Positions 4,295 to 61,452 of a DNA stretch of 64,000 nucleotides are shown here, in pieces. A model generated the notes under the pieces. It was not told the DNA's origin and did no database searches. It was given only the letters and a program-made list of their open reading frames with translations. The position numbers and the translations under genes were made by a program. Each line of letters begins with the position of its first letter. Positions within the stretch are counted from its first letter, which is position 1. The DNA comes from Cyanidioschyzon merolae. Its lineage: Eukaryota. The stretch is from the NCBI GenBank assembly GCA_000091205.1, contig AP006501.2; one strand, 5' to 3'.

Positions 4295-4314
4295 ATTGCA
4301 TTGCATTGCATTGC
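4295..4314. repeat. (ATTGC)4 pentanucleotide microsatellite
   Basis: tattgcattgcattgcattgcg. Confidence 0.85.
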
Positions 4315-5983: not shown

Positions 5984-6169
5984 TCCTGCGTTCTCTGTAA
6001 CAGCTCTAGGGCCTTCTGCAAGTGCCAGGAGAAGCCCACTGGCAGAGCGGGGTTCACGAAACCGAAAAGGCTACGCTTTCCGACCGATTCCACACGGTGG
6101 AACGTTTCAAGCTCGCAACAGTGCCCCTGGTTTCCTGTTCTCCAACAAGTACTGGGTCAAAAACCGTAC

Positions 6170-8340
6170 ACAAAAAGCACACACCGCCGGCAACAAACGC
6201 TTTTCAAAAGAAAGACGCTGCCGCCAGCGGTGTACAGTAGTCGCGACCGGCGCCCTAGAGGAAACGTCTCCAATTGACGTGCAGACGCCTTCCAGCTTTT
6301 TTCCACTGGCCACCCACTACGGCTTCCAACTTTATCTCATATAATTCCACATTCAGAGATTGTTCAATAAAGAGTTCTCTTGTCAACTCTGGGGGTCTCT
6401 TCTCCATCAACGCATATTTCCTTATATTGATGGCAGCATTAAAGTCTCGATTCATAAACTCCATCAGTTTCTTGCCGTTGGGAGTTGTACTCACTAATGC
6501 AAGTAGTCCACGAACTTTCGCGCTCCTTTCCATTTGCTCTTCCGTCAGCGTACCGTACTTTCTTATAACCTCAGGACTCCTCTGGCACTTTTCCATCTCG
6601 ACCCTCTGAAGTGTACACCCCAGTTCATGGTGTGTATAGGACGTTCGAAACTCATCTACAGGTATCGTGCCGATACGCCGTGCACACTCTTTGTACGTTC
6701 TTGTCGTTGGAGCTGGCGAAGTTCCTTGCTTGGGTCTTCCGTCGCCCTGCTCCGTACGCTACTACGAGCCTCTGACTTTCATCCTCCTTCAAGGCGCTCA
6801 GCTGATTGAAAAAGTTCGCGAATGCACGCTGCTTCCCACAATACAAATTCATTCGCAGTCGAACCCGCCGGGGCTTGGTCTACTCCTCCTACAGCGCATC
6901 CCAATGAGCAACACGAACTTCCATGAATTTCCGTAGAGCCTGAAAGTCCGCTCCTCGGCTTGTCACCTCGCTCAAAGCTTCCAGGTGCTCTTTCATTCCT
7001 GCATTTCACTTCTCAATTTTCTTCCTCGCATTCATTATACCGGATTCTCGATAGAATCTCGCTCTCGAGAACCCCAAAAGACGCATGTCTTTCTGACGTA
7101 AGTTAGCATCAGTACCATCTTCCGCACGCTAGGGTACTGCGATGGTTATGTTATTTGTGTTTCCGGGATCCGCGCCAACGACAAAGTCGTTATCTTGCAC
7201 CTCCTGCGTCGCAGGATCCGCCTCCTTCTCATCTTCATGCATCGTCGCGCCAACGACAAGGTCGTTATCTTGCACCTCCTGCGTCCCAGGATCCGCCTTC
7301 TGCTCATCTGCATCCTTCGTCACGGGCGCAGCCGAGGGAGGGACTGGGCGATCTGTCTTCAACCGCCGATAGTGTATACACAAGGCTACTCCATCGGTTT
7401 CGATCATCTCAGTGAATACCTTTTGTTTGCTGACTTTGAGACGTTTGAAATCGAAGATACTCTTCCAGTACGTCTCACGGTTTTCACCGGAGAATTTCTT
7501 CCTGCTAACATCGGACTCAGGACTGATCTCGCTCATGATGCTGCAAAGACGCCAGAGTGGATAGTCACAAAATGTGACTTGATATTGTACATTGGAACAA
7601 CGTTGAAGCGCTTCCCCATTAGGAACGCCTTCCGTCTCTCCCACTCTTCATTTTTTCCTCATTCAGCCTCATCTCTGCCGTGCGTTCGAGTTCGCGGTCC
7701 AAAAACACGAAATACCTCAAGATGAGGAGGTAGTATCTTTCCTTATCTTTTCCAACTCTGATATCTTGTCTGCTGGATTAACCAGCCCCAAGACTGCACG
7801 GTGTTCCTGTATAACCGCACGGATTAGAGAAGCTTCATTCGTGCACTCATTCGACGCCTTCTTGTCAACGAACTCGATCTCATCTTCATGATGGCGATCG
7901 TTCGTGATGCAACTGATAATTGCCCATTTTCCTGCGCGAGACAGACCCAGGTAGAGTGCAACCACGGTGCGTATCATGAAACGTTCGAAGTTCGCTGTCA
8001 AATGGTTCTTCAGATTCGCGAGGTACTTCATCGCCCCATAGCTGTAAATATCCCAGTCACCCTTGTACCGAGTACCCTCGAACCCGTCAAAGGGATGTTT
8101 TTCGTGGAGAGCATGCACTAGCACATTTTCCCTCCGCGCTTTCTCTGTACCAAGCATCAGGTGACGAATAAAGGTCTTGTCGAAGAACTCGCCGGGAATC
8201 TCGACCGTTTCCATGTGCGTCCCGTCGCGATACATCTCTCTCACCAAATGCATCAGTCTTGACAACGCGTTGACAATACTCTTGGAGTACGACGCAAAAC
8301 GTTTTTCGATAGCGTCTCGCAACTTTTGTTTATGGGGATC
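6170..8340 (-). mobile_element. Diverged, 5'-truncated copy (copy 1) of a TnpB-like, Fanzor-type element
   Basis: Roughly 90-95% similar by eye to the elements at 45450-48005 and 52281-54800. Similarity ends near 8340, just upstream of the MRDAIEKR N-terminus, and near 6170, about 90 bp past the last coding piece. Confidence 0.7.
6255..8322 (-). pseudogene. Fanzor/TnpB-like nuclease remnant (copy 1), interrupted by in-frame stops
   Basis: The pieces are 7717..8322, 7129..7644 (contains ..[18 protein letters not shown], RuvC-I-like, followed by a private TAG), 6652..6852 (FANFFNQLSALKEDESQRLVVAYGAG..., TnpB-like pre-zinc-finger block) and 6255..6596 (...MEFMNRDFNAAINIRKYAL, RuvC-III-like). 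The copy has private stops and indels relative to copies 2 and 3. Confidence 0.65.
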
Positions 8341-8995
8341 CTTGATATATCCAAAAGGGTCCGCCAGGCTCGCGCTTCATGCTCCCGCCAGTACTTACTG
8401 CTGTAGCGATATCTAAGCGACTCGTCGAGAAACGCTGGTCATTCTGGGCTCGGGGCGGGTAGCCTGCGTCAGGGGCGTCGCCCTGGTCGCAGTGGACTCC
8501 TAGCGTATCGCTTCGCGCTGCTGCAGGCAGTAGGTCTAACTGCACATCTCCCAGGCTTCCAGAATGTTGACGAATCCCGATTCCGTATTCAATGAAGCAT
8601 TCCTCGATCCGATACCCCCATGGATATGGCAAAACCGTTCTGTCTCCATTCAGCATCCGCACTAGCAGCATCGGCTCTATTGCGGATGCAGCAATGCAGG
8701 TACTCAGCGCACGATGGAACATACGAAATTACCAGTATATCCGAGAACAGACCATGAAACTTGGCGTAAGAGCGAAGCATATTGAGCACTGGCATTGATT
8801 CCAATATCCACCCCACAATCTAGAATCCATGATCCATACAAACGTCTTCTCATCGAAGAAATGGCTTCAGCAGCCACAACGCTACCGACGACGACGTCAA
8901 TTACAATAACGCAATCTGGCATACATTATCTGGAGCTAGCGTTGTACCGGGAGTCTGCGTGCCTCGGTCGCTAGTCGACGTCCTTGCCCAAGGAT

Positions 8996-12262: not shown

Positions 12263-13162
12263 ATGATCGGTTTCGTATTGCTGCTGTCAGGTCAGTCGAA
12301 TGCGCAAGTTTCTTCGCGGCTACGGAGATCCCTATGCAAAGGCGACACATGTGCGTGTCTGAGAGAGGATGAATTGGTGCCCGTTGGGAGGGCACGCTCG
12401 CCCCGCGGTCATCGCTCAGTTGCTGGACCGTCGAACGTGCGGCTGAGGCGTCAGCGCTGCTGCCACTTGCGTACTGTTAGTGAAGGTGCCACTGGAGGTG
12501 GCGGCGGCAGCGGGGGTAGAGGCGGCGGAAGTGGCGGTGGCGGCAGAGGTGGCGACGCCTCCGGAGCTTCGCCTCCACAGCAGCCTGGCTTACTGTTGGC
12601 GCTTTTCGAGCGTTACTGCAGGGCTCTCGAACGCCGTCCTATCTTCACAAAGTCGATAACAGCAGCCCTTTTGAATTTTTTCGCTGATCTTACTGCGCAG
12701 TACTTTGAAGCGCGCAAGCACCCCTCGGATACCCCGCCGGGGTGGCAGCGTCGGCGCACGTTGTCGTTCGCCATCATTGGCCTGTGCTTTGTTGGGCCTG
12801 GGCTCCACGGCTGGTTCTCGTTTTTGGAGAGAGCCTTCCCTCCATCACGGTTGTCACTTGTTGGAAAGTTGCTAATTGATCAGACTTTAGGAGCGGCGGT
12901 TTTCAACGGAGTTTTACTGGTCATGTTGTACTGGCTGGAGCACGGTGGCAAGTTCCAGGACGCGTGGCAGTCAATGAAACATCGTTTGCCACCCACAATG
13001 ATAGGAAACTGGAAAGTATGGCCGGCTGCTCAGCTCGTGAATTTTGCGTTCGTGCCACCAGCATTCAGGGTGCTCTACGTGAATAGCGTATCCTTCTTTT
13101 GGACCATCTATTTGTCGGAAATCGCGCACCGCACGATCACGAAGGAAGAAAAAAAGAGCTGA
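12263..13162 (+). CDS. Mpv17/PMP22 family membrane protein. The 5' end is unresolved.
   Basis: The domain from about 12590 onward reads ...LLALFERYCRALERRPIFTKSITAALLNFFADLTAQ...VGPGLHGWFSFLE...LIDQTLGAAVFNGVLLVMLYWLEHG...VWPAAQLVNFAFVPPAFRVLYVNSVSFFWTIYLS. The track ORF starts at a GTG (12152). The only in-frame ATG (12263) is followed by an odd (GGN)n Gly-rich segment. A missed intron or a non-ATG start is possible. Confidence 0.65.
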   Translation: MIGFVLLLSGQSNAQVSSRLRRSLCKGDTCACLREDELVPVGRARSPRGHRSVAGPSNVRLRRQRCCHLRTVSEGATGGGGGSGGRGGGSGGGGRGGDASGASPPQQPGLLLALFERYCRALERRPIFTKSITAALLNFFADLTAQYFEARKHPSDTPPGWQRRRTLSFAIIGLCFVGPGLHGWFSFLERAFPPSRLSLVGKLLIDQTLGAAVFNGVLLVMLYWLEHGGKFQDAWQSMKHRLPPTMIGNWKVWPAAQLVNFAFVPPAFRVLYVNSVSFFWTIYLSEIAHRTITKEEKKS

Positions 13163-14376
13163 GAATTATGCATTTCGTGGTGCATTTCTCGCAAAAGTCC
13201 AAAAACGTGGTTGTGATGGGAAACTCGTCGTCGAACAAGGCTAAGGTTTATGGGATTCGATGAGCTCGCGGGGCGCGTCACGTTGGGGCTGCGGACGCGT
13301 GCGGGCCGTTCATGACGACGACTATGGTGTGCAACGTCACGATAGTGACAGTTGGTAGATTAGAGACTCCAAACCGAGTACTCATCATGCTAGCATTTGG
13401 TGTTTGTCATATCCATGGTAAGGAGTCTGCGTGGACATGTCTGAGGGATTCTGCGCTGCCAAATGCAGCAGCGTGGGCGCTGGAGCGGAGCGTTTTATAC
13501 AGCGGCGCATCCGCTTGCTATTGATGCTGCCGAGCCGCCCGACTCGAACGCCAACGCTCTCGACATGTCAAATTTGCCTCGATGCTCCATCCGGGCTGCG
13601 ATAGAATCAGACACTCCCGTGGAAATCGTCCAGATCACAGAAATGATACACCAGCGCGACTCGCGTGAACGTATGAATGAATGTATGTATGCTGCCAGGG
13701 TATACGATTCGAACGACGCTTACATGGCAAGCGATTTGCGAACGACAAGAGCGGCGAGGTTTACATTTTTTAGCACGCGCAGTTCGAAGAAGCATTCAGG
13801 AAGATCGCACCTGTCCACCGACCGCGCGCACCGTGCGAAACGCATTCCCAGACGCCCAAGCCAGTGCTTGATTTGCTGCTCTCCTCTCTGATTCATGTTG
13901 TCCAGATCCAGTGAAAACTTACTGGGGAGGCTCTTCAGTCGGTGATCGCGCGCTCTGTCTAGTGGCTGCGGCGTGACAAGGCGGTTCTGGTGCGACACCT
14001 TCATCGACATCATGCAATGCAAATACAGAGCATTCATCCATTTGCAGAAGAATGTCCGGCTTTGATCTAGAGACGGTCGTGCTTGCGGGCGCTGCGACGC
14101 ATCTTCCGGATTCGTAGCAACGTACCTGCTCCGTCTGTGGAGTTTCCATTCTTGGGATGACTCGTTGAACATAGGTCGAGCTCCGGACACCAGATACCCA
14201 AAGCTGCAGCACGCTGTGCCAGAAACAATCGCATCTGCATTGGTCGCCTGAGCACCGAATGCGCTTGCCAGGTGCCTTGCAGTTCCAAAGGGCGTGTATG
14301 CTTGCAACCTCGGCATACTGCCTGGATGCGCTCGAGTCGGTGTGCGCTTCGTCATCAGCGTGCAGCCTGGCGGAGG

Positions 14377-16117: not shown

Positions 16118-16316
16118 ACCACGGCACGACGATAGGATGTACGAAACGACCAGAATATCCGAGAAGAAGTGCAGGTAATGTAACTTGGAGGTAGCGGGTT
16201 TGATGGATACTTTGCCGCGTACTGAGAAAAAAACACACAAAAAAAGCAGGAAAAGAAAAATGCGCATAATCGGAGAACGCTGGACTAAGTAAACGTTTTG
16301 TCAATGAAAAAAAAAC
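16118..16316 (+). mobile_element. Solo 5'-truncated 3' tail of the same non-LTR retrotransposon family as 48560-52276, ending in an A-run
   Basis: 16118-16316 aligns with 52080-52276, with shared strings such as gtacgaaacgaccaga, ggtttgatggatac and gtaaacg..ttgtc.atgaaaaaaa. The overlapping antisense ORFs encode similar peptides (KYPSNPLPPSYITCTSSRIFWSF vs RYPSNSLPPSYSTYTSPRILWSF). It terminates in (A)9 at about 16306-16316. Confidence 0.55.
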
Positions 16317-25786: not shown

Positions 25787-25855
25787 AAGCGGTGACGGTG
25801 GTGGTGTAGTCACCGTCGTGCATAGGCTCACGGGGAGGCGCAGCTCCACTGGAAC

Positions 25856-26773
25856 GGCAGTAGACTTCGATGGCGGACTGGTTTTTGTATGCATATGTGA
25901 TACGGTATATGTAAAACTGGGTATCGAACTTGCAGCGCTGATAAACGTGGCAGTAGACTTCGATGGCGGACTGGTTTGTATGCATATGTGATACGGTATA
26001 TGTAAAACTGGGTATCGAACTTGCAGCGCTGATAAACGTGGCAGTAGACTTCGATGGCGGACTGGTTTGTATGCATATGTGATACGGTGTGTGTAAAACT
26101 GGGTATCGAACTTGGAGCGCTGATAAACGTGGCAGTAGACTTCGATGGCGGACTGGTTTGTATGCATATGTGATACGGTGTATGTGAAACTGGGTATCGA
26201 ACTTGGAGCGCTGATAAACGTGGCAGTAGACTTCGATGGCGGACTGGTTTGTATGCATATGTGATACGGTGTATGTGAAACTGGGTATCGAACTTGGAGC
26301 GCTGATAAACGTGGCAGTAGACTTCGATGGCGGACTGGTTTGTATGCATATGTGATACGGTGTATGTGAAACTGGGTATCGAACTTGGAGCGCTGATAAA
26401 CGTGGCAGTAGACTTCGATGGCGGACTGGTTTGTATGCATATGTGATACGGTGTGTGTAAAACTGGGTATCGAACTTGGAGCGCTGATAAACGTGGCAGT
26501 AGACTTCGATGGCGGACTGGTTTGTATGCATATGTGATACGGTGTGTGTAAAACTGGGTATCGAACTTGCAGCGCTGATAAACGTGGCAGTAGACTTCGA
26601 TGGCGGACTGGTTTGTATGCATATGTGATACGGTGTATGTAAAACTGGGTATCGAACTTGCAGCGCTGATAAACGTGGCAGTAGACTTCGATGGCGGACT
26701 GGTTTGTATGCATATGTGATACGGTGTATGTGAAACTGGGTATCGAACTTGGAGCGCTGGTAAACGTAGAGAG
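25856..26773. repeat. Minisatellite of about 10 tandem 91-92-bp units
   Basis: The unit ggcagtagacttcgatggcggactggtttgtatgcatatgtgatacggtgtatgtgaaactgggtatcgaacttggagcgctgataaacgtg repeats with a period of 91-92 bp. The only variants are gtatatgt/gtgtgtgt/gtgtatgtg and cttgcagcg/cttggagcg. It begins 70 bp after the Bms1 stop. Confidence 0.9.
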
Positions 26774-27379
26774 CGCGCCACCCAGCCAACGCCGATGCTG
26801 ACTAGGATCCCCGCGCAATACCATAGTCACCTGTCTGACGTTTCCTTGGCGCAGTTGTTTTCAGTCTACCAAATAAGAGCGCCGCGTGTGTACTGAGGAT
26901 TGCTAGCGCTGCACACCGGATCGAGTAGCACCTGCCGTCGTGTGGAACGCCTCGACTAGAGCGTTTGCTGTTTCGGCGCCCTGCGTTGCTTCCAGATCTG
27001 CTGCTCATGTTGCTGTACGTAGTATGGTGGACGTGCATGGCCATGGACCCCTGGTCGAAGCATTGAAAGTAGCGAGCATAGGCATGCACGAAACAGCTGT
27101 TGTCTCAATGCAAGTTCGCTGTATCGAAACGCGTACCGGATGCAAGGTTAACGTTATTTTAGAGGGACATTAAAGCACTCGGATGGCTGCTCGGGTACCA
27201 GGCACCTCGGAAGCTACACCCACACCTACGCGATCAACAAGCGCGTCCACCAGTCCAGGATGCTTCGGAATCGTGCGTTCTGCAGACATCGATGCAAGCA
27301 TCTATTCGCAACTGGACAGGTAATGATAGAAGCAGCTGCCTCTGACGTACAATTCGTGCTGAGCATCGTGGACGCGATG

Positions 27380-40547: not shown

Positions 40548-41876
40548 TCAGATAAACATGGAACATTGACCCATCCGCTATGTTCCTTTTCATATGATTT
40601 TTTCTGAGCGATCTTAGATGCACCATTGGCATTCGAGGTGCAGCAGTAGGTGCGTACGGATTCATACGTGGTTTCGGGGCTCCAGCTTGTCTATTCAGTG
40701 TGCCGCTATCGACTAGTTGGTGCTGGAATTTTTTAGTGCGCTGGAATCAAAACATTACGTGTTGCTATCGAATACGGGATCGCAACAGAATACATGTCAC
40801 TGACCAAATCGTATGTACAAGCGTCCGCTCTCCTCCTTTGCTACCGTTTCGTATGCTTCAGTCACACAATCTTCGTGTTTTCCATCTTTCCGTATCACAG
40901 AGGCTCGTGAGTGCGGCTACTCGTACCGCCAGATTGACGCGGATAATACCTCGACAACGCCCCGTAGCGGCCGCTTTGTAAGCGCATCCCCAACAGTCAC
41001 TGAACCTGTCACGTCAAATGATCCTGATCGATTGAACGGCAAATCCGTCTGCCTTCGTGGGCATCGACGGAACTGCATTCACGCTCAGCTTGATCCATCT
41101 CACCGGGCTATGCTGGCAGGGTCTCCCGTCTCTCCTGCTAGAATGTGAGAGCATCGTCGACTAGGGCTTGGGTTAGCGCAGCGATCGCTTCCGGGGCGGC
41201 GAGCGCCTCACCGCTTCTGACCGAGTCAGCGTCGACGCATCGAGAATGCTCGACATCGTGCACCGACCTGGACTTTGCTGCAGATACCTCTATTATCCTG
41301 GATACGATCGCGTTCCGCATACGCTCTATCGAACGGAGCAGCGTGCGCTTTCGAGTGCAGCGGACAGCGTACTTGCCAAGCGTCCGCTCAGGAGTGGAAA
41401 CAGCGGCGGGTTCCATGTCGAACCTCGTTTACTGCGAATAGCACGAACACGGGCAAAGCGTGTAGGCATCACGCGCGATAGGGCGACGCTCGGATGACGA
41501 GGGTGTTTGGCGAACACACGGGAACGACTACCGTTATCCAAGCGTCGCTGCTGCAGCGCACGAATCTATTCTGTATACGAGCAAGATGAGCGCGACGAGG
41601 GAAGCGAAGCTCGTAACGTCCGCCTGGACGTGACCTGCATTGAGCACAGCCAAAAGCAACGAGACCGACACATGAGCGCTGCACTCCATGTCCTTCGACG
41701 AAGGAGAACGCTGCTGGCGTGAGAGGAAACGGAGGCGTATGGAAACACGGAGAGAAGCGAAAGGACCGAGAGGCAGTCGCACCAGAAACCGTAAGGGCTG
41801 GTCTTGACGACGCCCGAGAACACACTTAAACTTTAGCTCGCATACCCGCATAAGAGGTGCATTTTCATACTACGCT
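40548..41876 (+). repeat. 1.33-kb dispersed repeat, copy A. It is the direct-repeat partner of 60131-61452.
   Basis: tcagataaacatggaacattgacccatccgctatgttcc ... cttaaactttagctcgcatacccgcataagaggtgcattttcatactacgct is shared with copy B, with only a handful of substitutions. Flanks diverge immediately outside. No convincing protein domain was found in any frame. Confidence 0.85.
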
Positions 41877-42593: not shown

Positions 42594-43535
42594 ATGACGT
42601 TGCTGCACTTTAGAGGAAGGCGTCAAGCCGAGACCAGCCGCGCAAGCACCGAGATAAACTCTGAAAACCGCTCGCACTCTTCAACTGGTGGTGCTTTGAA
42701 TCCAAGCGAGGCGAACACAGAGCACGACGAGGTGATGGCGGAGCTTCACGACCTTCTGGTTCGTGAGCTGACCGATTGCGGTCTCATTGACTTGTTTACG
42801 TCGCAAAGCTTGCCTCAGTATGCATCAGAAAAGGATACCCTGACCGATGCAGGGTCAGAGAAGCAGCACAAAGCGACCGAGCTGGGAAACGGCGCCTCGG
42901 GCGGCGTGTTTCAACACTGGACCGGACCCTCGCGGCCTGCACCAGCTGACTTGTTAACCGTAGAGTCGCCACACGGTCGCACGGAGGAGCCAAGCGGTAA
43001 CCGCGGGTCCTTTCAGCGGGACGTACCGCCACTCGAGGACCAAAATGAGCCCATTTCCAGGGCTATGCAGCGCATCCGAGCTGCACTGCGACGCTGGAAA
43101 CCGCTCCACGGCGAGGTCGACCTCGAGACCCTCGAGCGCCTCAAGAACTCGATCGTTGAGCGCTCTGCCTGGTTTTTACGCGAGCAGGCAGAACAACGAG
43201 CCCGCTGGAAGGCAATGCGTCAAAACCCTGCCTATGTCGTTGAAGACTTTACAGCGAACCAGCGAACCTTCTTCTCATGGATTCGGACCAGTTTCCGTAT
43301 GGTCCTTACGGGAGCAGCCATTGGAAAGCTCTTGCACGGAACCAGCGTCATTATTCTCGGGGTACTGTATGCTGCCCTTGGCCTAATCTGCATTGCAGCG
43401 GGCACGATGCATTTTTACCATTGGCAGCGAACATTGTACAATCATCGATATTTGCGGGATTCGCGTCCTTTCATCGTGGTGTTCCTGGGAATCACTGCGA
43501 CCAGTGTCGTCGCTCTAATGGCTTGTTGGAAATAG
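42594..43535 (+). CDS. DUF202 (YidH-like) domain membrane protein, possibly VTC-family-like
   Basis: The C-terminal NQRTFFSWIRTSFRMVLTGAAIGKLLHGTSVIILGVLYAALGLICIAAGTMHFY matches the DUF202 consensus (ER.FLAW.RT.L.....G.A.) followed by hydrophobic helices. The ATG is at 42594. Confidence 0.5.
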   Translation: MTLLHFRGRRQAETSRASTEINSENRSHSSTGGALNPSEANTEHDEVMAELHDLLVRELTDCGLIDLFTSQSLPQYASEKDTLTDAGSEKQHKATELGNGASGGVFQHWTGPSRPAPADLLTVESPHGRTEEPSGNRGSFQRDVPPLEDQNEPISRAMQRIRAALRRWKPLHGEVDLETLERLKNSIVERSAWFLREQAEQRARWKAMRQNPAYVVEDFTANQRTFFSWIRTSFRMVLTGAAIGKLLHGTSVIILGVLYAALGLICIAAGTMHFYHWQRTLYNHRYLRDSRPFIVVFLGITATSVVALMACWK

Positions 43536-45449: not shown

Positions 45450-48005
45450 GCGCACCCCTGGAAACAAACGTCTTTCAAAAGAAAAACGTTGCTGCCAGTG
45501 GTACAGTAGTGGCGGCAACCGCACCCTAGCCAAGAAGTCTCCAACTGATGTGCAGACGCCTTCCAGCTTTTTTCGACTGGCCACCCACTACTGCTTCCAA
45601 CTTTTTCCCATATAATTCCACATTCAGAGATGGTTCCATAAAGTTTTCTCTTGTCAGCTCTGGGGGTCTATTCTCCATCAACGCATATTTCCTTATATTG
45701 CTGGCAGCATTAAAGTCTCGGTTCATAAACTCCATACGTTTCGTGCCGTTGGGAGTTGTACTCACTAATGCAAGTAGTCCACGAACTTTCGCGCTCCTTT
45801 CCATTTGCTCTTCCGTCAGCGTACCGTACTTTCTTATAACCTCAGGACTCCGCTGGCACTTTTCCATCTCGACCCTCTGAAGTGTACACCCTAGCTCATG
45901 GTGTGTATAGGACGTTCGAAACTCATCTACAGGTATCGTGACGATACTCCGTGCACACTCTTTGTACGTTCTTGTCGTTGGAGCTGGCGTAGTTCCTTGC
46001 TTGGGTCTTCCGTCACCCTGCTCCGTACGCTACTACGAGTCTCTGACTTTCATCCTCCTTCAAGGCGCTCAGCAGATTGAAAAAGTTCGCGAATGCACGC
46101 TGCTTCCCACAATACAAATTCATTCGCAGTCGAACCCACCGGGGCTTGGTCTACTCTTTCCACAGCGCATACCAGTGAGCAATACGAAGTTCCATGAATT
46201 TCCGAAGAGCCTGAATGTCCGCTCGTCGGCTCGTCACCTCGCTCATAGCTTCCAGATGCTCTTTCATTCTTTCATTCCATGCAGCAATTTTCTTCCTCGC
46301 ATTCATTATACCGGATTCTCGATAGTATCTCGCTCTCGAGAACCTCAAAAGACGCATGTATTTCTGACGTAAGTTACCATCAGTACCATCTTCCGCACGC
46401 TGGGGTACTGCGATGGTTATGTTATTTGTGTTTCCGGGATCCGCGCTGACGACAAAGTCGTTATCTTGCACCTCCTGCGTCGCAGGATCCGCCTCCTTCT
46501 CATCTTCATGCATCGTCGCGCCTGCATCCTTCGTCTCGGGCGCAGCCGAGGGAGGGACTGGACGATCTGTCTTCAACCGCCGATAGTGTATACACAAGGC
46601 TACTCCATCGGTTTCGATCATCTCAGTGAATACCTTTTGTTTGCTGACTTTGAGACGTTTGAAATCGAAGATATTCTTCCAGTATGTCTGCCGGTTTTCA
46701 CCGGAGAATTCCTTCCTGCTAACATCGAAATCAGGACTGATCTCGCTCGTGATGCTGCAAAGACGCCAGAGTCGATAGTCACAAAATGTGACTTGATATT
46801 GTACATTGGAACCACGTTGAAGCGCTTCCCCATTAGGAACGCCTTCCGTCTCTCCCACTCTTCATTTTTTCCTCATTCAGCCTCATCTCTGCCGTGCGTT
46901 CGAGTTCGCGGTCCAAAAACACGAAATACCTCAAGATGAGGAGGTAGTATCTTTCCTTATCTTTTCCAACTCTGATATCTTGTCTGCTGGATTAACCAGC
47001 CCCAGTACCGCACGGTGCTCTTGTATAACCGCACGGATTACAGAAGCTTCATTCGTGCACTAATTCGACGCCTTCTTGTCAACGAACTCGATCTCATCTT
47101 CATGATGGCGATCGTTCGTGATGCAATTGATAATCGCCCATTTTCCTTCGCGAGACAGACCCGGGTGGAGTGCAACCACGGCGCGTATCATGAAACGTTC
47201 GAAGTTCGCTGTCAAATGGTTCTTCAGATTCGTGAGGTACTTCATGGCCCCGTAGCTGTAAATATCCCAGTCACCCTTGTACCGAGTACCCTCGAAGCTG
47301 TAGAAGGAATGTTTTTCGTGGAGGGCATGCACTAGCACATTTTCCCTCCGCGCTTTCTCTGTACCAAGCATCAGGTGAGGAATAAAGGTCTTGTCGAAGA
47401 ACTCGCCCGGAATCTCGACCTTTTCCATGTGCGTCCCGTCGCGATACATCTCTCTCACCAAATGCATCAGTCCTGACGACGCCTTGACAATATTCTTCGA
47501 GTACGACGCAACACGTTTTTCGATAGCTTCTCGCAACTTTTCCCTGTACGGATCCTTGATCTGTCCAAGAAGAAAGGTTTTCACCACCATCTCGTCGCAC
47601 AGTTGTCTTTCTTGCCGCTTTCGACGTAGGGCCTCCCCCGTTTTTGCGTTTTCTTCTTATCCTGCTCTTCTGGAATCGGCACTGTTTTTTGTTTTTTTTC
47701 TGGCACCCGGCGACACTGGGCCTCCAGGATCGTAGACTTGCTTTTTCATAGCTTTCCTTTTTTAGTTTTTTTTGAGAAAGAACGCTCTTTGAACTCTTCT
47801 GTTATATACTGCGAAAAAAACACTTGATTAGACTTGTTCGAAGTTTGAAACACAATTGAAATGAAAAACTGTACTTGGCTATGAAGTTAACGAAAATACA
47901 ACTTTTACATTAGATCTACATGCTAGAGATCAGGATCACGTTCCCCTTCAACAACGGCATGTGCGTAGCGTCTCATGCCTGCCTGATCTCCGAGGTGCAC
48001 TCACC
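45450..48005 (-). mobile_element. TnpB-like (Fanzor-type) element copy 2. It forms the left arm of a 2.5-kb inverted repeat.
   Basis: It is the reverse complement of 52281-54800 at near identity. Coding remnants are 47060..47590 (the N-terminal piece, ending KKASN then TAG), 46151..46858 (the middle piece with [15 protein letters not shown]) and 45526..45867 (C-terminal MEFMNRDFNAASNIRKYAL...). A Lys/Arg-rich putative NLS segment lies further 5'. Confidence 0.75.
45526..47590 (-). pseudogene. Fanzor/TnpB-like nuclease remnant (copy 2). It has in-frame stops and lacks one 20-aa internal repeat present in copies 1 and 3.
   Basis: The middle piece reads ...[51 protein letters not shown]..., which has a single [11 protein letters not shown] unit compared with two in copy 3. 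Confidence 0.65.
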
Positions 48006-48559
48006 GAGCGCGATGCAAACTAGTCACAAATTATTTATTAAAGAACAACTATCTTAAAAGCCCCATACAGCACGCGCGCCTATGGGGTCTAGTTTTTCCG
48101 AAGAAGCTCTGAAAGTGGGTTAAACCGGGGTGCTTGGGCGACGACGAAGGAAGCCCACGCCAGGGACCATGACCGCAACGAACGGAGGGGCGGAGGCAGT
48201 GGCAGCAGAAAATATTGACGAGAGTTCTGAGTAGTTATCCGCTGCTCCCGAAACAACGCTGCAGGTTCCGGCGCAAATCCTGGATCCATCCTCGAACTCG
48301 GGCTACGTTTTACCTCCCACCTTGAGCACCTACCTCAACTTTGGAAACACTCTCGGCGGATACTTCGGAAGGCGGCTATCGATATGCTCGTGGTCGAAGC
48401 TGGAATAAGCGACTTACCCGCCTATGTGTTTGGGGAACGGATACGTAACCGCTGAACGGGTGCTTTGCAGACTGTTCCCAATGGTTGAGGGTAGCTTCAC
48501 GCGTCCGGCAAGATAAAGTTCGCATTCGAATCGACCTTGACTAATGTACTTCTGATTCT

Positions 48560-51500
48560 ACGCTAGCGCTGCGGCAGACACTCAATGAACGACTGGAATG
48601 CAGGAGGCGCTGGTGGCATGTGCTCTCACACACCTTGTGGAGGGTGCATCTAAATGGACGACGCATCTCTCGAGTACCGCAGCGTTACTCCTATACCCTT
48701 ATGCGCTACGACTCGATAGGTTTCGCATCATGGAATATTTGCGGTGTGGCCTCGATACTAGACGACGAGATATCGAATTACCAGTACAGTAATGAAGAAC
48801 TGATACAAGTCGAGGACTGTACAATAGGAAAAGAGACCCAACCAGACACGGAGAAGGAGACACAGAAACCTCATGATCCACCTAGATGCAAAATAACCAG
48901 AGAAAGTAGCTCAGGAAAGAGCCCGAAGAAGAAAAAGACCAGCAAGAAATAAACAGAAGAATAGAAAAAAGAACTCCCAAATGAGCCCATCACAAGGTAT
49001 CCCCCGAGAGGGCACCCCAGCTGGAACTCAAGAAAGCCGTCGCCAAACCCAGGCACCTACTCACAGCGCTGAAGATCCGAAAAGCCGTGCATACAAATTT
49101 TTTGACCAATTGACACGCGAGTTTGTAGATGGGAATCAGAAGATTGCCAGAGAGCTGGGACTGCTTGCACCAGAACGCAACAGTTGCAAACCTCGGTACC
49201 TGAAACGACGTACCAAAACTCGGATTGATGAATGCTACCGAGTCTATAAGATCGTCAACCGCACCGCCATACACGCCAACGCCGGAGACAAAGAAGCGAA
49301 GGCAGCGCTACCGGCGCTACAGGCGCAACATGAAGAAGCTATCAAAAGAAAGAAGAAACTTTCCAGAGAAGACAAACGAGAGGATCGAAACCGCAGAATC
49401 GCCTCCCTGGCGAAATCTATGCTGGAGAGCACCAACGAAGATGAGATCTGGCGCTACATTCGATCGAGACTCGACCCACCAAAAAAGTGCTTGGGGCTCA
49501 CACCAACTCTGTATAAGGAAGAGCTGAGGACGGAGCGTGCCTCAGTGAATGAGGCCTGGACAGACCACTGGACAGAGCTGCATGAAGAAGCAACTGGACA
49601 CTGCTAAGACCCAATCTATTGGCACCAATATGCTGCAGAACTACCGCGCCTCGACCCGGTACCGGAATGGAACGACCCAATCTTCTGGCCTGAATCTGTC
49701 CGGACTCTGCTATGCTCAAGCAACCGCAAAACACCTGGCTTTGACGGTATCCCTACGGAGTGGATGAAACTGGTGATCCCAAAAGACGGGACAACAGGGA
49801 CACCATCGATACCAGATGAACCTGACAGAATCTTAGGCAAGCGCCTTCTGGAGCTCATCCAACGCATGTTCGAAGAAGCGTACATCCCAGATGTATGGAG
49901 GACTGCCGAGGTCGTATCGATCCTCAAAAAGGACTCCGAACCCCACAGACATGAATATCTACCGGACTATGCGCCTCATCCCGTCAATCATGAAGCTACT
50001 TTGCGCCAACCTCACGAACCGGACTCAGAGGGGCCTTGAGGAACGCAACTTCCTCGCCCCAGAGCAGGCTGGATTCCGGAGCCGCGAGGAGTGCATGAGC
50101 CATGACCTGACCTTCATTGAAGTGGTGCAACGTCGCTCCATTAGCTGCCAACAACCAACTTACGTATGCTTCATCGACTTTCAAAAGGCCTTTGACACGG
50201 TCCCGCACGAGGCTCCATTTCTGAAGATGGAACGTGCCAGAGTCTCCGGAAAGTGCTTAGCGTTCTTCCGTGCGCTCTATGCAGACTCGTGGATGTGCAC
50301 CCGACTGGGCGACTGCTCAAGAACCCCTTCGATAAGAATCCGCCGTGGACTGCGACAGGGCGACCGCGCATCCCCGCGCCTTTTCAACATCTTCATCAAC
50401 GATCTGCTGAACAACTGCAGACAATACGGGCTTCAGGTGTCGTGGATAGACTGTGGAGAACCCGGTGAGGAGCGCCTACATAGAAACCGCCTCGCAGGCC
50501 TTCTACTTGCGGACGATGTCGTGCTGTTGGCACCCGCCCCGGAAACGCTTGCGGCTAGCATGCAACAAGTCAGCGCCTGGGCCGATCGCTGGGTTATGAA
50601 CATAGGAGCATCGAAGTGCGGCGCCATGGTCATCCTTGGAGACTCGCAGCGCATTCGCAATCGCTCGTGGCGGTTGCAGAATCAGGAAATTCCGATCGTG
50701 GAAAAATATCGCTACCTGGGGGTCTGTCTCACGCCGACGCTCGACGAAAAGGCACAAGTCGACGAGATGATCGCCAAGATGCATAGACGTACAGAGATCG
50801 CACGTCCATTCTTATCCGACCCCTCTATCTGCATAGCAATCCGTACGAGGGCACTAAGGATGTGTATCATCCAGCCTTCGACCTGGGGTGCTGAATGGTG
50901 CGGCATGAAGCACACAAATGCCTCGCGTCTGCATACAGCCGCCAACAGGGCAATGCGACTCGTTGGTGTTGGATGCTCAGTGCAGCGCAGAGCGACCAAC
51001 CCGCTGGCACTCGGACTTGAACTCCAAATAGCCTCGATAGAAGCGATAGCAGCAGGCTGCCGGGCATGTATACGGGCCAAAGGGCCCACTATGCGCACCT
51101 CCTTGAGTCGGATTTTCATGCAGACCCCAACGCACCGCTAGAACACTTGGATGAAATCAGCGCAGATTTGGCTGAAGCGCCTCTTACGCGAAAACACGCT
51201 ACCCAATCGTTCCCCAGGAATGTAGAAGACTTCAGACGCCTCAAGCGAACGGTCCAAACAACAATATGGGAAGGTAGACACGGTACCAGTCGCGCTAGTA
51301 ACGCCGGCTTGACTCTATATCGGAACTACAACCTAGCATACACATGCAAGTACTGGTGGGAGGCGCTGGAATTCCCGGGACTTGCTCGCGGTACCCTGTG
51401 GCTTGCCAAAATCCGTGTTAGTGGCATCTGGCTACCAGCACCGGCTCTAAGCCGTACGGGAACACTGGAACCGCACTGGGAGTCACACTGTCCCTGCTAT

Positions 51501-52276
51501 CGAGACGAAATCCCCGAGACGCTGACATATTTAAGCTTACAGTGCCCGCGCTCGAAGCAGGAGCGCAGCGAGCTCCTTGAAGGACAGCAGGAGCTCGGCA
51601 TCACCGTGATAGTCGAAGGCCGGACACTCACTCTGAGTGTAGCACTGGCAACTGATGGTCCGCTAACGGAGCCTCAGCGCTCATGAGTGGCGAAGAAACT
51701 CACATGCTACCTTCTAGGCAGCAGGTCCAACGAATCGGATGAGCACACGGGTTTAGTGCTCTTTGTGCCTACCCACTGTGGTGGGTGTCAAGCACAAACC
51801 CGCATTGCCAACCGACAACACATTCAATGCATGATCACGAAGGAAAGAGGCGGCTCGCACGATATATCCTAACAGCCAAGTTTCTCCAGCGTGTCGTGCA
51901 GCGAAGACAAGCCTGCATCCGCAGACTGTCCGAGCACAAACTGACGACGAGACCCGATTCTACTTCGGTTGAACCACGCCTCGAGCCGACGCGCTCTGGG
52001 GTATAGAAAAGCTGCTCTAGCTCGATGAACTATCTGCTCCAGCATTTAAGGTCCAAAGGCGGATACGGAAAGGCAGGTACTAGGCACACACGATAGGACG
52101 TATGAAACGACCAGAGTATCCGAGGTGAAGTATAGGTACTGTAGCTTGGAGGCAGGCTGTTTGATGGATACCTAACCGCGCACTGAAAAAAATAACATAA
52201 AAAAGTAAGAAAAGAAAAAGCGCACAATTGGAAAATGCTGGCACAAGTAAACGTCTTGTCCATGAAAAAAAGAATC
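48560..52276 (+). mobile_element. Degenerate non-LTR (LINE) retrotransposon with APE-like, RT and CCHC remnants and a 3' A-rich end
   Basis: 48620..48952 carries IGFASWNICGVAS, an AP-endonuclease-like start. 49764..50039 and 49891..51141 carry RT blocks (VWRTAEVVSILKK..., YRTMRLIPSIMKLL, CFIDFQKAFDTVPHE, GLRQGDRASPRLFNIFIND, LLADDVVLLA). 51066..51686 has a CCHC-like knuckle (CPCYRDEIPETLTYLSLQCP). Frameshifts separate the pieces. The 3' end (...catgaaaaaaag) abuts arm B at 52281. The 5' boundary is approximate. Confidence 0.75.
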
Positions 52277-52280
52277 GCGC

Positions 52281-54800
52281 TCGGTGAGTGCACCTCGGAG
52301 ATCAGGCAGGCATGAGACAAGACGCGCGTGCCGTTTTTGAAGGGAAACGCGATCCTGATCAGTAGCGTGTTGTTCTGCTGTAAAAGTCGGATTCCCGTTC
52401 AGATCATAGCAAAGTATAGTTTTCATTTCAATTGTGTTTCAAACTTCGAACAAGTCTAATCAAGTGTTTTTTTCGCAGTATATAACAGAAGAGTTCAAAG
52501 AGCGTTCTTTCTCAAAAAAACTAAAAAAGGAAAGCTATGAAAAAGCAAGTCTACGATCCTGGAGGCCCAGTGTCGCCGACTGCCAGAAAAAAAACAAAAA
52601 ACAGTGCCGATTCCAGAAGAGCAGGATAAGAAGAAAACGCAAAAACGGGGGAGGCCCTACGTCGAAAGCGGCAAGAAAGACAACTGTGCGACGAGATGGT
52701 GGTGAAAACCTTTCTTCTTGGACAGATCAAGGATCCGTACAGGGAAAAGTTGCGAGAAGCTATCGAAAAACGTGTTGCGTCGTACTCGAAGAATATTGTC
52801 AAGGCGTCGTCAGGACTGATGCATTTGGTGAGAGAGATGTATCGCGACGGGACGCACATGGAAAAGGTCGAGATTCCGGGCGAGTTCTTCGACAAGACCT
52901 TTATTCCTCACCTGATGCTTGGTACAGAGAAAGCGCGGAGGGAAAATGTGCTAGTGCATGCCCTCCACGAAAAACATTCCTTCTACAGCTTCGAGGGTAC
53001 TCGGTACAAGGGTGACTGGGATATTTACAGCTATGGGGCGATGAAGTACCTCGCGAACCTGAAGAACCATTTGACAGCGAACTTCGAACGTTTCATGATA
53101 CGCACCGTGGTTGCACTCTACCCGGGTCTGTCTCGCGAAGGAAAATGGGCGATTATCAATTGCATCACGAACGATCGCCATCATGAAGATGAGATCGAGT
53201 TCGTTGACAAGAAGGCGTCGAATTAGTGCACGAATGAAGCTTCTGTAATCCGTGCGGTTATACAAGAGCACCGTGCGGTACTGGGGCTGGTTAATCCAGC
53301 AGACAAGATATCAGAGTTGGAAAAGATAAGGAAAGATACTACCTCCTCATCTTGAGGTATTTCGTGTTTTTGGACCGCGAACTCGAACGCACGGCAGAGA
53401 TGAGGCTGAATGAGGAAAAAATGAAGAGTGGGAGAGACGGAAGGCGTTCCTAATGGGGAAGCGCTTCAACGTGGTTCCAATGTACAATATCAAGTCACAT
53501 TTTGTGACTATCGACTCTGGCGTCTTTGCAGCATCACGAGCGAGATCAGTCCTGATTTCGATGTTAGCAGGAAGGAATTCTCCGGTGAAAACCGGCAGAC
53601 ATACTGGAAGAATATCTTCGATTTCAAACGTCTCAAAGTCAGCAAACAAAAGGTATTCACTGAGATGATCGAAACCGATGGAGTAGCCTTGTGTATACAC
53701 TATCGGCGGTTGAAGACAGATCGTCCAGTCCCTCCCTCGGCTGCGCCCGAGACGAAGGATGCAGATGAGCAGAAGGCGGATCCTGAGACGCAGGAGGTGC
53801 AAGATAACGACCTTGTCGTTGGCGCGACGATGCATGAAGATGAGAAGGAGGCGGATCCTGCGACGCAGGAGGTGCAAGATAACGACTTTGTCGTCAGCGC
53901 GGATCCCGGAAACACAAATAACATAACCATCGCAGTACCCCAGCGTGCGGAAGATGGTACTGATGGTAACTTACGTCAGAAATACATGCGTCTTTTGAGG
54001 TTCTCGAGAGCGAGATACTATCGAGAATCCGGTATAATGAATGCGAGGAAGAAAATTGCTGCATGGAATGAAAGAATGAAAGAGCATCTGGAAGCTATGA
54101 GCGAGGTGACGAGCCGACGAGCGGACATTCAGGCTCTTCGGAAATTCATGGAACTTCGTATTGCTCACTGGTATGCGCTGTGGAAAGAGTAGACCAAGCC
54201 CCGGTGGGTTCGACTGCGAATGAATTTGTATTGTGGGAAGCAGCGTGCATTCGCGAACTTTTTCAATCTGCTGAGCGCCTTGAAGGAGGATGAAAGTCAG
54301 AGACTCGTAGTAGCGTACGGAGCAGGGTGACGGAAGACCCAAGCAAGGAACTACGCCAGCTCCAACGACAAGAACGTACAAAGAGTGTGCACGGAGTATC
54401 GTCACGATACCTGTAGATGAGTTTCGAACGTCCTATACACACCATGAGCTAGGGTGTACACTTCAGAGGGTCGAGATGGAAAAGTGCCAGCGGAGTCCTG
54501 AGGTTATAAGAAAGTACGGTACGCTGACGGAAGAGCAAATGGAAAGGAGCGCGAAAGTTCGTGGACTACTTGCATTAGTGAGTACAACTCCCAACGGCAC
54601 GAAACGTATGGAGTTTATGAACCGAGATTTTAATGCCCCTATCAATATAAGGAAATGAGCGGTGCTGGAGGAAAGACCCCCAGAGTAGACAATAGAAAAC
54701 CTTTTTGGACAACCTCTCAAAGTCGAACTATATGAGATAAAGTTGGAACCAGTATTAGGTGGCCGATCCAAAAAGGCTGGAAGGCGTCTGCACATCAGCT
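52281..54800 (+). mobile_element. TnpB-like (Fanzor-type) element copy 3. It forms the right arm of the inverted repeat.
   Basis: Coding remnants: 52434..52690 is a K/R-rich NLS-like stretch in another frame. 52696..53226 is the N-terminal piece. 53428..54192 is the middle piece (...[27 protein letters not shown]...RIAHWYALWKE). A continuation lies in the same frame after a TAG (TKPRWVRLRMNLYCGKQRAFANFFNLLSALKEDESQRLVVAYGAG). 54476..54658 reads MEKCQRSPEVIRKYGTLTEEQMERSAKVRGLLALVSTTPNGTKRMEFMNRDFNAPINIRK. A conserved 3' noncoding tail of about 140 bp follows. Confidence 0.75.
52560..54658 (+). pseudogene. Fanzor/TnpB-like RuvC nuclease remnant (copy 3)
   Basis: The domain order matches TnpB/Fanzor. 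There is an N-terminal region, a RuvC-I-like hydrophobic-D-P-G motif, then a F..F..L..K.E....VV block, then a Cys-containing region, then the RuvC-III-like NRDFNA.INI. In-frame stops occur after KKASN, after TTSSS (four stops within 25 codons), after ALWKE and after YGAG. Confidence 0.65.
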
Positions 54801-54953
54801 GGAGGCGTTTCGTCTAGGGCGCGTTCGCCGGCACGACTGTACACGGCCGCCGGCTGTGCGTCACGTGGAGCCGCGAGCGGCGGGCTTCTACCAAGTGCCG
54901 CTTGTACCAAACGCACTTGCACCTCGTGTGGACACAGACGCATACCTGAGTGC

Positions 54954-59599: not shown

Positions 59600-60130
59600 G
59601 TTTGCAGGCTAGCACCAGTGTGTCCCTGGGTCGCTCGAAACGAGAACCAACGCACCGTGCGTGTGTTCGTCGAACGAGCAGTCTCTGGTGGTAGCGACGA
59701 GTGAATGCGGAGTGTTCAAGAGAGTTCCTCACGATCAGCAGAGTGACTCGAGAGGCACGTACCAAAGAATAGAGTTAATCGGTTCCCTGGCCTGTCTACG
59801 AGGGGACGCAAAGGCGTCCTTGGGGTTGTTCTACGAAAACGACTCGTTCCACCTGCGCAGCGCACTTGAATGGACTCCACCAGTGGTGAAACTTTGACAC
59901 CTGTAAACCAACCTGGGTCCAACGGGCCTCTCTTCGCGCTATCACCGTACCCATCGAAAAGCAACGCTCAACAGTGGTGCGCAGTACATTGCAAGTGGCT
60001 GTCAGTCGAATGCTCTGGAGAGAAACATCTCCTCGTTCCGTCGGGATTGTGCGGTGCGGTGCGGTGCGGTGCGCGTGGAGCGGCGTCACGATAGCAGGAA
60101 GGAGGATTATGTTGACGTTTAGCTCAGATA

Positions 60131-61452
60131 AACATGGAACATTGACCCATCCGCTATGTTCCTTTTCATATGATTTTTTCTGAGCGATCTTAGATGCACC
60201 ATTGGCATTCGAGGTGCAGCAGTAGGTGCGTACGGATTCATACGTGGTTTCGGGGCTCCAGCTTGTCTATTCAGTGTGCCGCTATCGACTAGTTGGTGCT
60301 GGAATTTTTTAGTGCGCTGGAATCAAAACATTACGTGTTGCTATCGAATACGGGATCGCAACAGAATACATGTCACTGACCAAATCGTATGTACAAGCGT
60401 CCGCTCTCCTCCTTTGCTACCGTTTCGTATGCTTCAGTCACGCAATCTTCGTGTTTTCCATTTTTCCGTATCACAGAGGCTCGTGAGTGCGGCTACTCGT
60501 ACCGCCAGATTGACGCGGATAATACCTCGACAACGCCCCGTAGCGGCCGCTTTGTAAGCGCATCCCCAACAGTCACTGAACCTGTCACGTCAAATGATCC
60601 TGATCGATTGAACGGCAAATCCGTCTGCCTTCGTGGGCATCGACGGAACTGCATTCACGCTCAGCTTGATCCATCTCACCGGGCTATGCTGGCAGGGTCT
60701 CCCGTCTCTCCTGCTAGAATGTGAGAGCATCGTCGACTAGGGCTTGGGTTAGCGCAGCGATCGCTTCCGGGGCGGCGAGCGCCTCACCGCTTCTGACCGA
60801 GTCAGCGTCGACGGATCGAGAATGCTCGACATTGTGCACCGACCTGGACTTTGCTGCAGATACCTCTATTATCCTGGATACGATCGCGTTCCGCATACGC
60901 TCTATCGAACGGAGCAGCGTGCGCTTTCGAGTGCAGCGGACAGCGTACTTGCCAAGCGTCCGCTCAGGAGTGGAAACAGCGGCGGGTTCCATGTCGAACC
61001 TCGTTTACTGCGAATAGCACGTACACGGGCAAAGCGTGTAGGCATCACGCGCGATAGGGCGACGCTCGGATGACGAGGGTGTTTGGCGAACACACGGGAA
61101 CGACTACCGTTATCCAAGCGTCGCTGCTGCAGCGCACGAATCTATTCTGTATATGAGCAAGATGAGCGCGACGAGGGAAGCGAAGCTCGTAACGTCCGCC
61201 TGTACGTGACCTGCAGTGAGCACAGCCAAAAGCAACGAGACCGACACATGAGCGCTGCACTCCATGTCCTTCGACGAAGGAGAACGCGGCTGGCGTGAGA
61301 GGAAACGGAGGCATATGGAAACACGGAGAGAAGCGAAAGGACCGAGAGGCAGTCGCACCAGAAACCGTAAGGGCTGGTCTTGACGACGCCCGAGAACACA
61401 CTTAAACTTTAGCTCGCATACCCGCATAAGAGGTGCATTTTCATACTACGCT
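60131..61452 (+). repeat. 1.33-kb dispersed repeat, copy B
   Basis: See copy A (40548-41876). More than 99% identical, in the same orientation, about 19.6 kb apart. Confidence 0.85.

Follow-up and report, generated by a model that had tools for sequence, protein, structure and literature searches.

A degenerate LINE between two decayed, inverted CMe-1A Fanzor1 copies in Cyanidioschyzon merolae: probable old elements with homogenised centres

The window analysed here is a 64,000-nucleotide stretch of contig AP006501.2 of Cyanidioschyzon merolae (GenBank assembly GCA_000091205.1). It belongs to strain 10D, to whose deposited DUF202, histone deacetylase, retroelement and eIF4G proteins its ORFs correspond exactly. 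Between its divergently transcribed histone deacetylase (HDAC) and eIF4G genes lies a nest of transposable elements (TEs), as had been proposed by an earlier model reading of the letters alone (hereafter the sequence-only reading). The nest consists of two Fanzor elements in inverted orientation, arms A and B, with their 5' ends facing inward, and of a degenerate non-LTR retrotransposon, or long interspersed nuclear element (LINE), that fills the spacer between them (Table 1). By their sequence, both arms are core-only copies of the known Fanzor1 family CMe-1A. A comparison of the arms with each other, with a third copy of the family in the same window (copy C) and with contigs from environmental relatives makes it quite probable that the nest is composed of three old, inactive mobile elements, and that the arms are diverged copies whose centres have undergone conversion.

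Table 1. Coordinates of the nest and its parts, the neighbouring genes and copy C, as positions in the window.
Feature	Position	Strand	Remarks
DUF202 protein, CYME_CMS067C	42594-43535		Exact match to the protein deposited for C. merolae 10D
Histone deacetylase gene, BAM82711.1	44043..45326	-	Hist_deacetyl E=1.3e-89 (Pfam); exact match to the deposited protein
Arm A, pseudogenised CMe-1A Fanzor1 core	45450..48014	-	Consensus 648-3169; 5' end toward the LINE; from the inverted repeat and consensus alignment
Long terminal hairpin at the 3' (element) end of arm A	45450..45506	-	Minimum free energy -28.1 kcal/mol, z=-6.1
Degenerate LINE, whole spacer	48015..52273	+	RVT_1; frameshifts; independent copies
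Reverse transcriptase open reading frame (ORF), 416 aa	49891..51141	+	Exact match to BAM82712.1, 'retroelement' of C. merolae 10D; RVT_1 E=2.7e-22
A-rich LINE 3' tail AAAAAAAGAA	52264..52273	+	Read from the sequence; directly adjoins the first base of arm B (52274)
Arm B, pseudogenised CMe-1A Fanzor1 core	52274..54846	+	Consensus 648-3147; 3' end diverged or truncated, without terminal hairpin
Inner end of arm B	52274-52419	+	146 nt; 24 mismatches; 83.6% identity to arm A
Central tract, putatively homogenised	52420-54627 (arm B); 45716..47867 (arm A)	+ (arm B); - (arm A)	2208 nt; 8 mismatches; 99.64% identity
Outer end of arm B	54628-54846	+	219 nt; 48 mismatches; 78.1% identity to arm A
Tandem 75-nt (25-codon) unit, arm B	53748..53897	+	Two copies; linker before RuvC-I
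RuvC catalytic codons, arm B	53902..54628	+	D (ADPGNTN) 53902-53904; E (VDEFRTS) 54419-54421; D (NRDFNA) 54626-54628
eIF4G gene, BAM82713.1, 973 aa	54954..57875	+	MIF4G and W2 domains (Pfam); first in-frame ATG; exact match
Copy C, third CMe-1A copy	6198..8855	-	Consensus 1-499 and 1084-3169; TE-N2 5' module kept, consensus 500-1083 lost

A repeat search of the window resolves the inverted repeat into four collinear inverted segments (45501-48014 against 52274-54842), the innermost of which stand 4259 nt apart, and BLAST joins the two arms in a single alignment of 2571 columns with 94.7% identity and 59 gap columns. In a global alignment they differ by 80 mismatches and three gaps, including a 57-nt deletion in arm A, and at such a length a repeat cannot originate by chance. 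The inverted repeat described in the sequence-only reading is thus real, with limits refined to those of Table 1; the outer limit of arm A, at about 45450, is set by homology to the family and by a hairpin at the element's end. That reading also called the arms near-perfect, which is correct for their centre and incorrect for both ends.

The CMe-1A family has been described from C. merolae as about 150 copies that are about 80% identical to a consensus of roughly 3 kb, with no terminal inverted repeats (TIRs), undetermined target site duplications (TSDs) and an unknown class, and with a 5' part of 635 bp in common with a separate element, TE-N2_CMe (Bao & Jurka 2013, PMC3627910). Against the consensus itself (3169 bp, supplementary file 2 of PMC3627910), arm A is 85.2% identical over positions 648-3169 (window 48012 to 45469) and arm B is 84.5% and 88.6% identical over 648-3147. 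The published CMe-1 protein matches the conceptual translation of the arms. Because they lack the 635-bp TE-N2_CMe module and start at consensus position 648, the arms are core-only variants of CMe-1A. A comparison of the first 80 nt with the reverse complement of the last 80 nt gave no sign of TIRs, as 428 of 500 shuffles scored as high or higher, and no direct repeat that could be a TSD was found around the nest as a whole. CMe-1A itself encodes no transposase.

When the reconstructed arm protein and four of its homologues were searched singly against Pfam and PDB, nothing significant was returned, the best being Cas12f1-like_TNB at E=0.07-0.21, so that the identification of the arms as Fanzor required profile and fold searches. 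A total of 58 homologues of the reconstructed protein were retrieved, among them an intact protein of 752 aa (P0001, encoded in contig L007) that is 70% identical to it. A profile of the family matches the Parasitella Fanzor1 structure 9cf0 at E=7.6e-11 and the Guillardia Fanzor1 structure 9cer at E=0.011. When an AlphaFold model of P0001 (mean pLDDT 74) was compared with PDB by Foldseek, the seven top matches were all Fanzor1 proteins (SpuFz, PpFz and GtFz, E 1.9e-14 to 1.9e-12); SpuFz was the best (E=1.9e-14, TM 0.70), and TnpB and Cas12f trailed at E>0.03. In three-frame translation, the broken TnpB-like frame of both arms carries the motifs ADPGNTN, VDEFRTS and NRDFNA, with the catalytic D, E and D expected of the split RuvC domain of Fanzor1, in which the E stands just upstream of the zinc-finger region. 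These three columns are invariant or nearly so in an alignment of 14 family sequences and align to the RuvC motifs of Parasitella Fanzor1 (PpFz1). The profile match, the fold matches and the 85-89% identity to the CMe-1A consensus bear out the earlier assignment of the arms to Fanzor elements.

Neither arm has an intact frame. When they are set against the consensus ORF of 734 aa, six frameshifting indels (+1, +2, three separate -1 and +1) and the stops at codons 229, 527 and 573 are common to the two arms, and arm B has two further stops (54656 and 54686) in its diverged 3' part, for a total of three to five in-frame stops per arm. With these lesions neither arm is able to make a Fanzor nuclease, and no RNA-guided activity is to be expected of the structure today. 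Introns were considered as an explanation of the in-frame stops and rejected, since the consensus and one environmental allele (L002, discussed below) read through, and the window copies differ from them by single-nucleotide indels. Arm A retains 93 nt of the tandem 75-nt region (46442-46529), through the 57-nt deletion at 46522/46523. The 25-codon unit occurs once in the consensus, about 1.2 times in arm A, twice in arm B and in copy C and at least four times in P0001, where it makes up residues ~374-471 and is disordered in the model.

Misassembly is a classic problem with such repeats, and the reference might in theory contain a single Fanzor copy that was duplicated or misjoined. No support for this was found, and the arms differ from each other at their ends and by the 57-nt indel. 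Independent evidence comes from environmental contigs, 2-4% diverged from strain 10D, which were retrieved through look-ups of HDAC, eIF4G and the family protein and one scan with a DNA pattern. Contigs from several samples cross every junction. One of 11 kb (L001) starts in the DUF202 gene and passes through HDAC, arm A and the complete LINE to end 455 nt inside arm B, all in the orientation of the reference, and five others (L061, L024, L012, L044 and L062) cover each junction at 95-98% identity. The reproduction of all four junctions in independent contigs effectively excludes an artefact or duplication of the assembly, and we regard this explanation as extremely improbable.

The differences between the arms are distributed very unevenly. 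Seventy-two of the 80 mismatches fall in the terminal 365 nt, leaving a central deficit with a binomial p=7e-52, and 1.5 kb of the centre (53120-54627) has zero mismatches and one indel. The divergence at the arm ends is the ordinary level between CMe-1A copies. An identical centre of this length could be expected if a single Fanzor copy had undergone a recent inverted duplication, for example through fold-back or a switch of template while DNA was repaired or replicated, and the two had then diverged. Neutral divergence, however, cannot place 72 of 80 differences in the terminal 365 nt, and both arms end at the termini of the family rather than at arbitrary breakpoints. In addition, the inner ends carry arm-specific variants that are already present in the environmental strains: over its first 188 nt, arm A of L001 is 100% identical to arm A of 10D but shares only 87% identity with arm B, and L012 has the variants of arm B. 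As these variants are kept in relatives, the arms were distinct before those strains split, and a recent duplication appears unlikely, to a degree that leaves it little weight. The best reading of the mosaic is that the arms are two old, separately derived copies whose centres have probably been homogenised recently by gene conversion.

Copy C extends this pattern. It is 75-89% identical to the CMe-1A consensus and has four frameshifts in common with arms A and B. Compared with either arm, it is 94-99% identical in the centre and 75-83% identical in the last 190 nt, and it lies 38-46 kb away, so that exchange of sequence reaches beyond the palindrome and across this distance. In the history that we propose, two CMe-1A cores of about 2.55 kb would have started as ordinary diverged members of the family, about 20% apart and lying head to head with their 5' ends inward. 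Intrachromosomal gene conversion would later have overwritten the central 2.2 kb of both cores with one sequence, which was presumably dead already when it spread, as it carries the six frameshifts and three stops, and copy C may have been partly drawn into the same exchange.

Several points weigh against this history. That the mosaic was caused by gene conversion, and in what order the events took place, we infer from the pattern rather than from any observed conversion, and a young duplication whose ends were overwritten from other copies of the family could in principle produce the same mosaic. No empty-site or single-arm allele that would show the order of insertions was found among the contigs, and no TSDs were found at the LINE or around the whole nest, which means that a simple history of insertion is not readable from the sequence. 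The contigs derive from short-read metagenomes and may be chimeric across repeats, and comparisons that involve L002, L003, L062 and L029 are weaker than the evidence internal to 10D. Finally, chance insertion does not explain the exact fit of the LINE between two core ends.

The arms appear to vary together among relatives. Contig L002 (positions 1-1640) comes from JGI sample 3300050377 and represents the arm A locus. Its identity to arm A of 10D is about 78% in the centre and 94-100% in the outer end and the flank. The reading frame stays open in L002 across three frameshifts of 10D, although G stands in place of both the RuvC-I D and the RuvC-II E, and none of the other sampled copies matches it closely. 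L002 may be either an unconverted allele or a chimeric contig. Hypermutation resembling repeat-induced point mutation (RIP) was rejected as the source of its divergence, since the spectrum of changes is balanced (155 of 253 are transitions, and all four types are similar). In two contigs from other samples, L003 for arm A and L062 for arm B, the stretch 54078-54527 has the same sequence, which in both is 5-9% diverged from 10D. The patterns in L002, L003 and L062 fit ongoing concerted evolution of the arms. In a further contig, L029, an A-type LINE/core junction is linked with the copy C flank, and this contig was set aside as a possible metagenomic chimera.

The spacer was described in the sequence-only reading as mostly a degenerate LINE with its A-rich 3' end directly on the inner end of arm B, and both statements stand. 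The LINE coding region is scattered over three frames by several frameshifts. A frame-corrected translation of 1047 aa yields RVT_1 alone (E=8.9e-22), and no endonuclease family of either the apurinic (APE) or the restriction-enzyme-like (REL) type was detected in it at E<=0.1. By eye, only a short 'FASWNICG' stretch resembles the start of an APE domain, and the missing endonuclease fits an internally deleted copy of the element. From spacer position 136 to 4259 (window 48150-52273), four other copies (L063, L064, L031 and L041) show 88-91% identity to it; with such coverage by independent copies, essentially the entire spacer is LINE. A 3' end of the form ...GTCCATGAAAAAAAGAA is common to L063, L064, L046 and L021, and in L063 and L064 the tail ends beside host DNA. 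The 5' truncation of other copies varies, occurring at positions 2986 and 3171. At its opposite end (48015), the window LINE adjoins the first base of arm A. No duplication was found around it that could be a TSD; both flanks are the palindrome-like starts of the two cores.

The two ends of the LINE therefore lie on the same position of two CMe-1A cores, and we surveyed the junctions at this position in some 20 separate family loci. On its 5' side the core has a sharp limit (GCA|TCGCGC...), and the sequence upstream of it varies between loci. In many of them an inverted TE-N2 module stands upstream of core base 1, which is the published form of CMe-1A. A LINE tail, or that of a short interspersed nuclear element (SINE), stands in direct orientation on core base 1 in arm B of the window, in L046/L021 (an 84%-identical copy whose LINE is 5'-truncated at 3171) and in L053. 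An inverted LINE with its 5' end on core base 1 is found at full length in arm A of the window, in an older copy (L031/L023) and, truncated at 2986, in L007/L020/L032. The recurrence of retroelement termini on one exact base of the core, in both orientations and at independent loci, is a pattern in these junction sequences that cannot be assigned to coincidence.

One further sequence, designated module X, was seen upstream of core position 1 in L014, L016 and L018, and in shorter form in L056, L042/L040 and L034/L017. Its lengths of 206, 440, 565 and >1300 nt give a pattern like that of a fixed 3' end and a variable 5' end, and within it, about 700 nt upstream, is a 98-nt segment similar to the 3' end of Fanzor. 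L056 also contains a second head-to-head pair of cores, at 3920-6521 (-) and 12576-13384 (+), with a spacer of about 6 kb. As this spacer gave no LINE match and contains only unannotated ORFs, the pair was not accepted as another instance of a recurrent unit.

One way to account for LINE ends on core base 1 is a single complex retrotransposition that built the entire structure, in which RNAs of the LINE and of a Fanzor core, or a read-through RNA, were copied from both nicks of one target with twin priming and end-to-end template jumping, so that the unit would be a LINE that carries Fanzor copies as inverted ends. Twin priming is known from L1 elements, and by analogy the internal A-rich LINE tail would be a natural site for a second priming; both LINE ends do adjoin base 1 of a core, and like junctions exist elsewhere (L046/L021, L007/L020/L032 and L031/L023). 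But a single RNA population predicts uniform arms, and the arm ends differ by 16-22% around an identical centre. None of the Fanzor copies has a poly(A) or LINE-like tail behind its 3' end, no TSDs were found, other LINE copies end at host DNA without a Fanzor element, and most cores have no adjoining LINE. A single-event origin of both arms is thus disfavoured, and we consider it very unlikely. According to a passage in a 2026 review that cites the 2023 Fanzor survey, LINEs have been seen near Fanzor genes (PMC13565253). The same review states that there is no evidence of retrotransposons encoding Fanzor (PMC13565253), and none was found at the window locus either.

It is possible, though doubtful, that the 5' boundary of the core is a specific landing site for the resident LINE/SINE family and that the inverted repeat arose when one LINE integration bridged two inverted copies of the target. 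This could occur by two routes: the LINE endonuclease may favour the core-boundary sequence on either strand, or a nick made at the core end by the still unknown transposase of the element may prime reverse transcription. If the same motif were cut on both strands of two inverted cores, a single LINE integration would yield the observed structure. On this reading the canonical CMe-1A, with its inverted SINE-like TE-N2 and core, might be an older product of the same process that was amplified later. As part of the history proposed above we infer more modestly that the LINE came to lie on the A|TCGCGC boundary because this is a preferred site of its LINE/SINE family. LINE insertions are also found away from Fanzor, and most cores lack an adjoining LINE, so that any targeting of the core would be a preference and not a strict site specificity. 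The flanks that follow LINE tails (CCCGCC, CCTGCA, CCCGCG, TCGCGC and TCGTGC) hint at a preference for GC-rich targets that the core start may satisfy incidentally.

The start of TE-N2, when reverse-complemented, resembles the 3' end of the LINE, and TE-N2 looks like a SINE-type derivative of the window LINE, judging from this resemblance. Elsewhere in the window, a fragment at 16129-16313 is 81% identical to the LINE 3' region (51970-52156), and the TE-N2 module (CMe-1A consensus 60-265) matches that region in reverse orientation.

The 3' end of CMe-1A is marked by the terminal hairpin. The equivalent place in copy C, 6190-6245 (-), also folds (z=-7.5), and arm B has no terminal hairpin (z=0.15). 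Most copies of the family have such a structure, formed by two different stem sequences (3' ends of L007, L016, L031, L043, L059 and others): at the same place the stems are either of the CGTTTTTC-TTTT-GAAAGGCG type or of the CGTTCGA-CTT-TCGAACG type. The presence of two stem sequences at one position suggests that the structure itself is conserved at the CMe-1A 3' end. RNAalifold gave no useful consensus for 25 of these 3' ends on a plain alignment because the two hairpin variants lie in different registers, and individual folds were used instead. The hairpin is possibly the 3' region of an omega-RNA or a DNA signal for transposition. A scan of 44.5-55.5 kb against Rfam gave no match.

The distance from the HDAC start codon (45326) to the outer end of arm A is 123 nt, in agreement with the limit of 45450 and the spacing of about 125 bp proposed by the sequence-only reading and now fixed by family homology and the terminal hairpin. 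On the other side, the overlap that it had proposed between the repeat and the annotated 5' end of eIF4G does not exist: the eIF4G ATG (54954) lies outside arm B, 108 nt from its outer end. The ORF that enters arm B from a GTG at 54759 is a mechanical artefact of ORF listing, and the deposited BAM82713.1 is exactly the ORF that begins at ATG 54954.

These short intervals raise the question of whether the inverted repeat has been kept for a host function and homogenised by selection, as a source of hairpin RNA, as an insulator or as a promoter module that would serve HDAC and eIF4G in both directions. The 123 nt and 108 nt of non-repeat DNA left before the two start codons, and the conservation of the architecture in environmental relatives, could be taken in its favour, but conservation among strains 2-4% apart is uninformative. 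No Rfam match points to such a role. Moreover, the homogenised sequence has stops and frameshifts, and the distant copy C shares in the homogenisation, which fits neutral conversion. We therefore regard retention for a host function as very unlikely. A regulatory contribution of the nest to HDAC or eIF4G is conceivable from its position, and with so little DNA between it and the two start codons the nest is a reasonable test case for TE-derived promoter sequence.

The structural instability that had been predicted for the palindrome can be considered in the same way. Cruciform extrusion requires short spacers between the arms, and the spacer of this palindrome is 4259 nt, so that extrusion of a cruciform or hairpin with a loop of this size is unlikely on this reasoning. 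Inversion of the spacer by non-allelic homologous recombination (NAHR) is plausible, since the conversion evident in the arms indicates that they recombine. An inverted allele was not seen; L001, the sole contig able to show one, has the reference orientation. Two further repeats were noted in the window. A 1329-bp direct repeat (40548-41876 and 60124-61452), 99.25% identical and 19.6 kb apart, flanks a block in which the TE nest lies together with eIF4G, HDAC and the DUF202 gene. The repeat does not resemble CMe-1A or the LINE, and if its two copies recombined unequally, the entire block could be lost or duplicated. A tandem array at 25793-26911, with about 12 copies of a 91-bp unit that are mostly 97-98% identical, coincides with a strong positive GC skew.

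The family, its protein, the host genome (2013) and the annotation of the LINE are already known, and as both Fanzor copies are dead the locus adds little to Fanzor biology. Two modest points may be new, the conversion mosaic and the recurrence of exact LINE/SINE ends at the first base of the core. The mosaic would be a clean example of how a dead allele spreads by gene conversion from one transposon copy to others, in a genome that is very compact and poor in repeats, and it serves as a warning that pairwise identity is unsafe for dating TE copies or for inferring recent activity. The coincidence of LINE/SINE ends with the core, if confirmed genome-wide, could reveal the way in which the LINE/SINE of C. 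merolae interacts with CMe-1A, a family as yet unclassified. If the core boundary is truly a landing site, a retroelement and a Fanzor element would for the first time be linked by a mechanism, and there would be a first clue to how CMe-1A moves.

A comparison of the nest with known systems shows both similarities and disparities. Like the solved Fanzor1 nucleases (SpuFz 8GKH/9CEU-9CEZ, PpFz 9CF0-3 and GtFz 9CER-T), P0001 has the Fanzor1 fold and the RuvC D/E/D residues, but sequence identity is just 12-15%, and the window copies yield no full protein. The arms share with CMe-1A as published (PMC3627910) the same genome and encoded protein, the lack of TIRs and recognisable TSDs and a distance of about 20% between copies. 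The window arms differ in being core-only pseudogenes, and that paper (PMC3627910) describes neither a pair of cores head to head about a LINE nor a mosaic of conversion. Among the annotated C. merolae retroelements, which include entries named 'retroelement, alive' and 'retroelement, dead', the spacer shares RVT_1, the A-rich tail and the existence of 5'-truncated copies elsewhere; in contrast to them, the window copy is frameshifted and lacks a detectable endonuclease, and no TSDs were found for it. The arms of sex-chromosome palindromes and the inverted repeats of plastids are examples of concerted evolution by gene conversion. As in such repeats, the window arms are near-identical in the centre, with ends and a wider family that are far more diverged, and they appear to co-vary between strains. 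Unlike those systems, the arms here are dead transposons of 2.5 kb, and a non-palindromic copy, copy C, participates. Site-specific LINEs that target other repeats include Tx1L, which inserts in Tx1D, and R1/R2, which insert in rDNA; the window likewise has retroelement ends on one exact position of another element.

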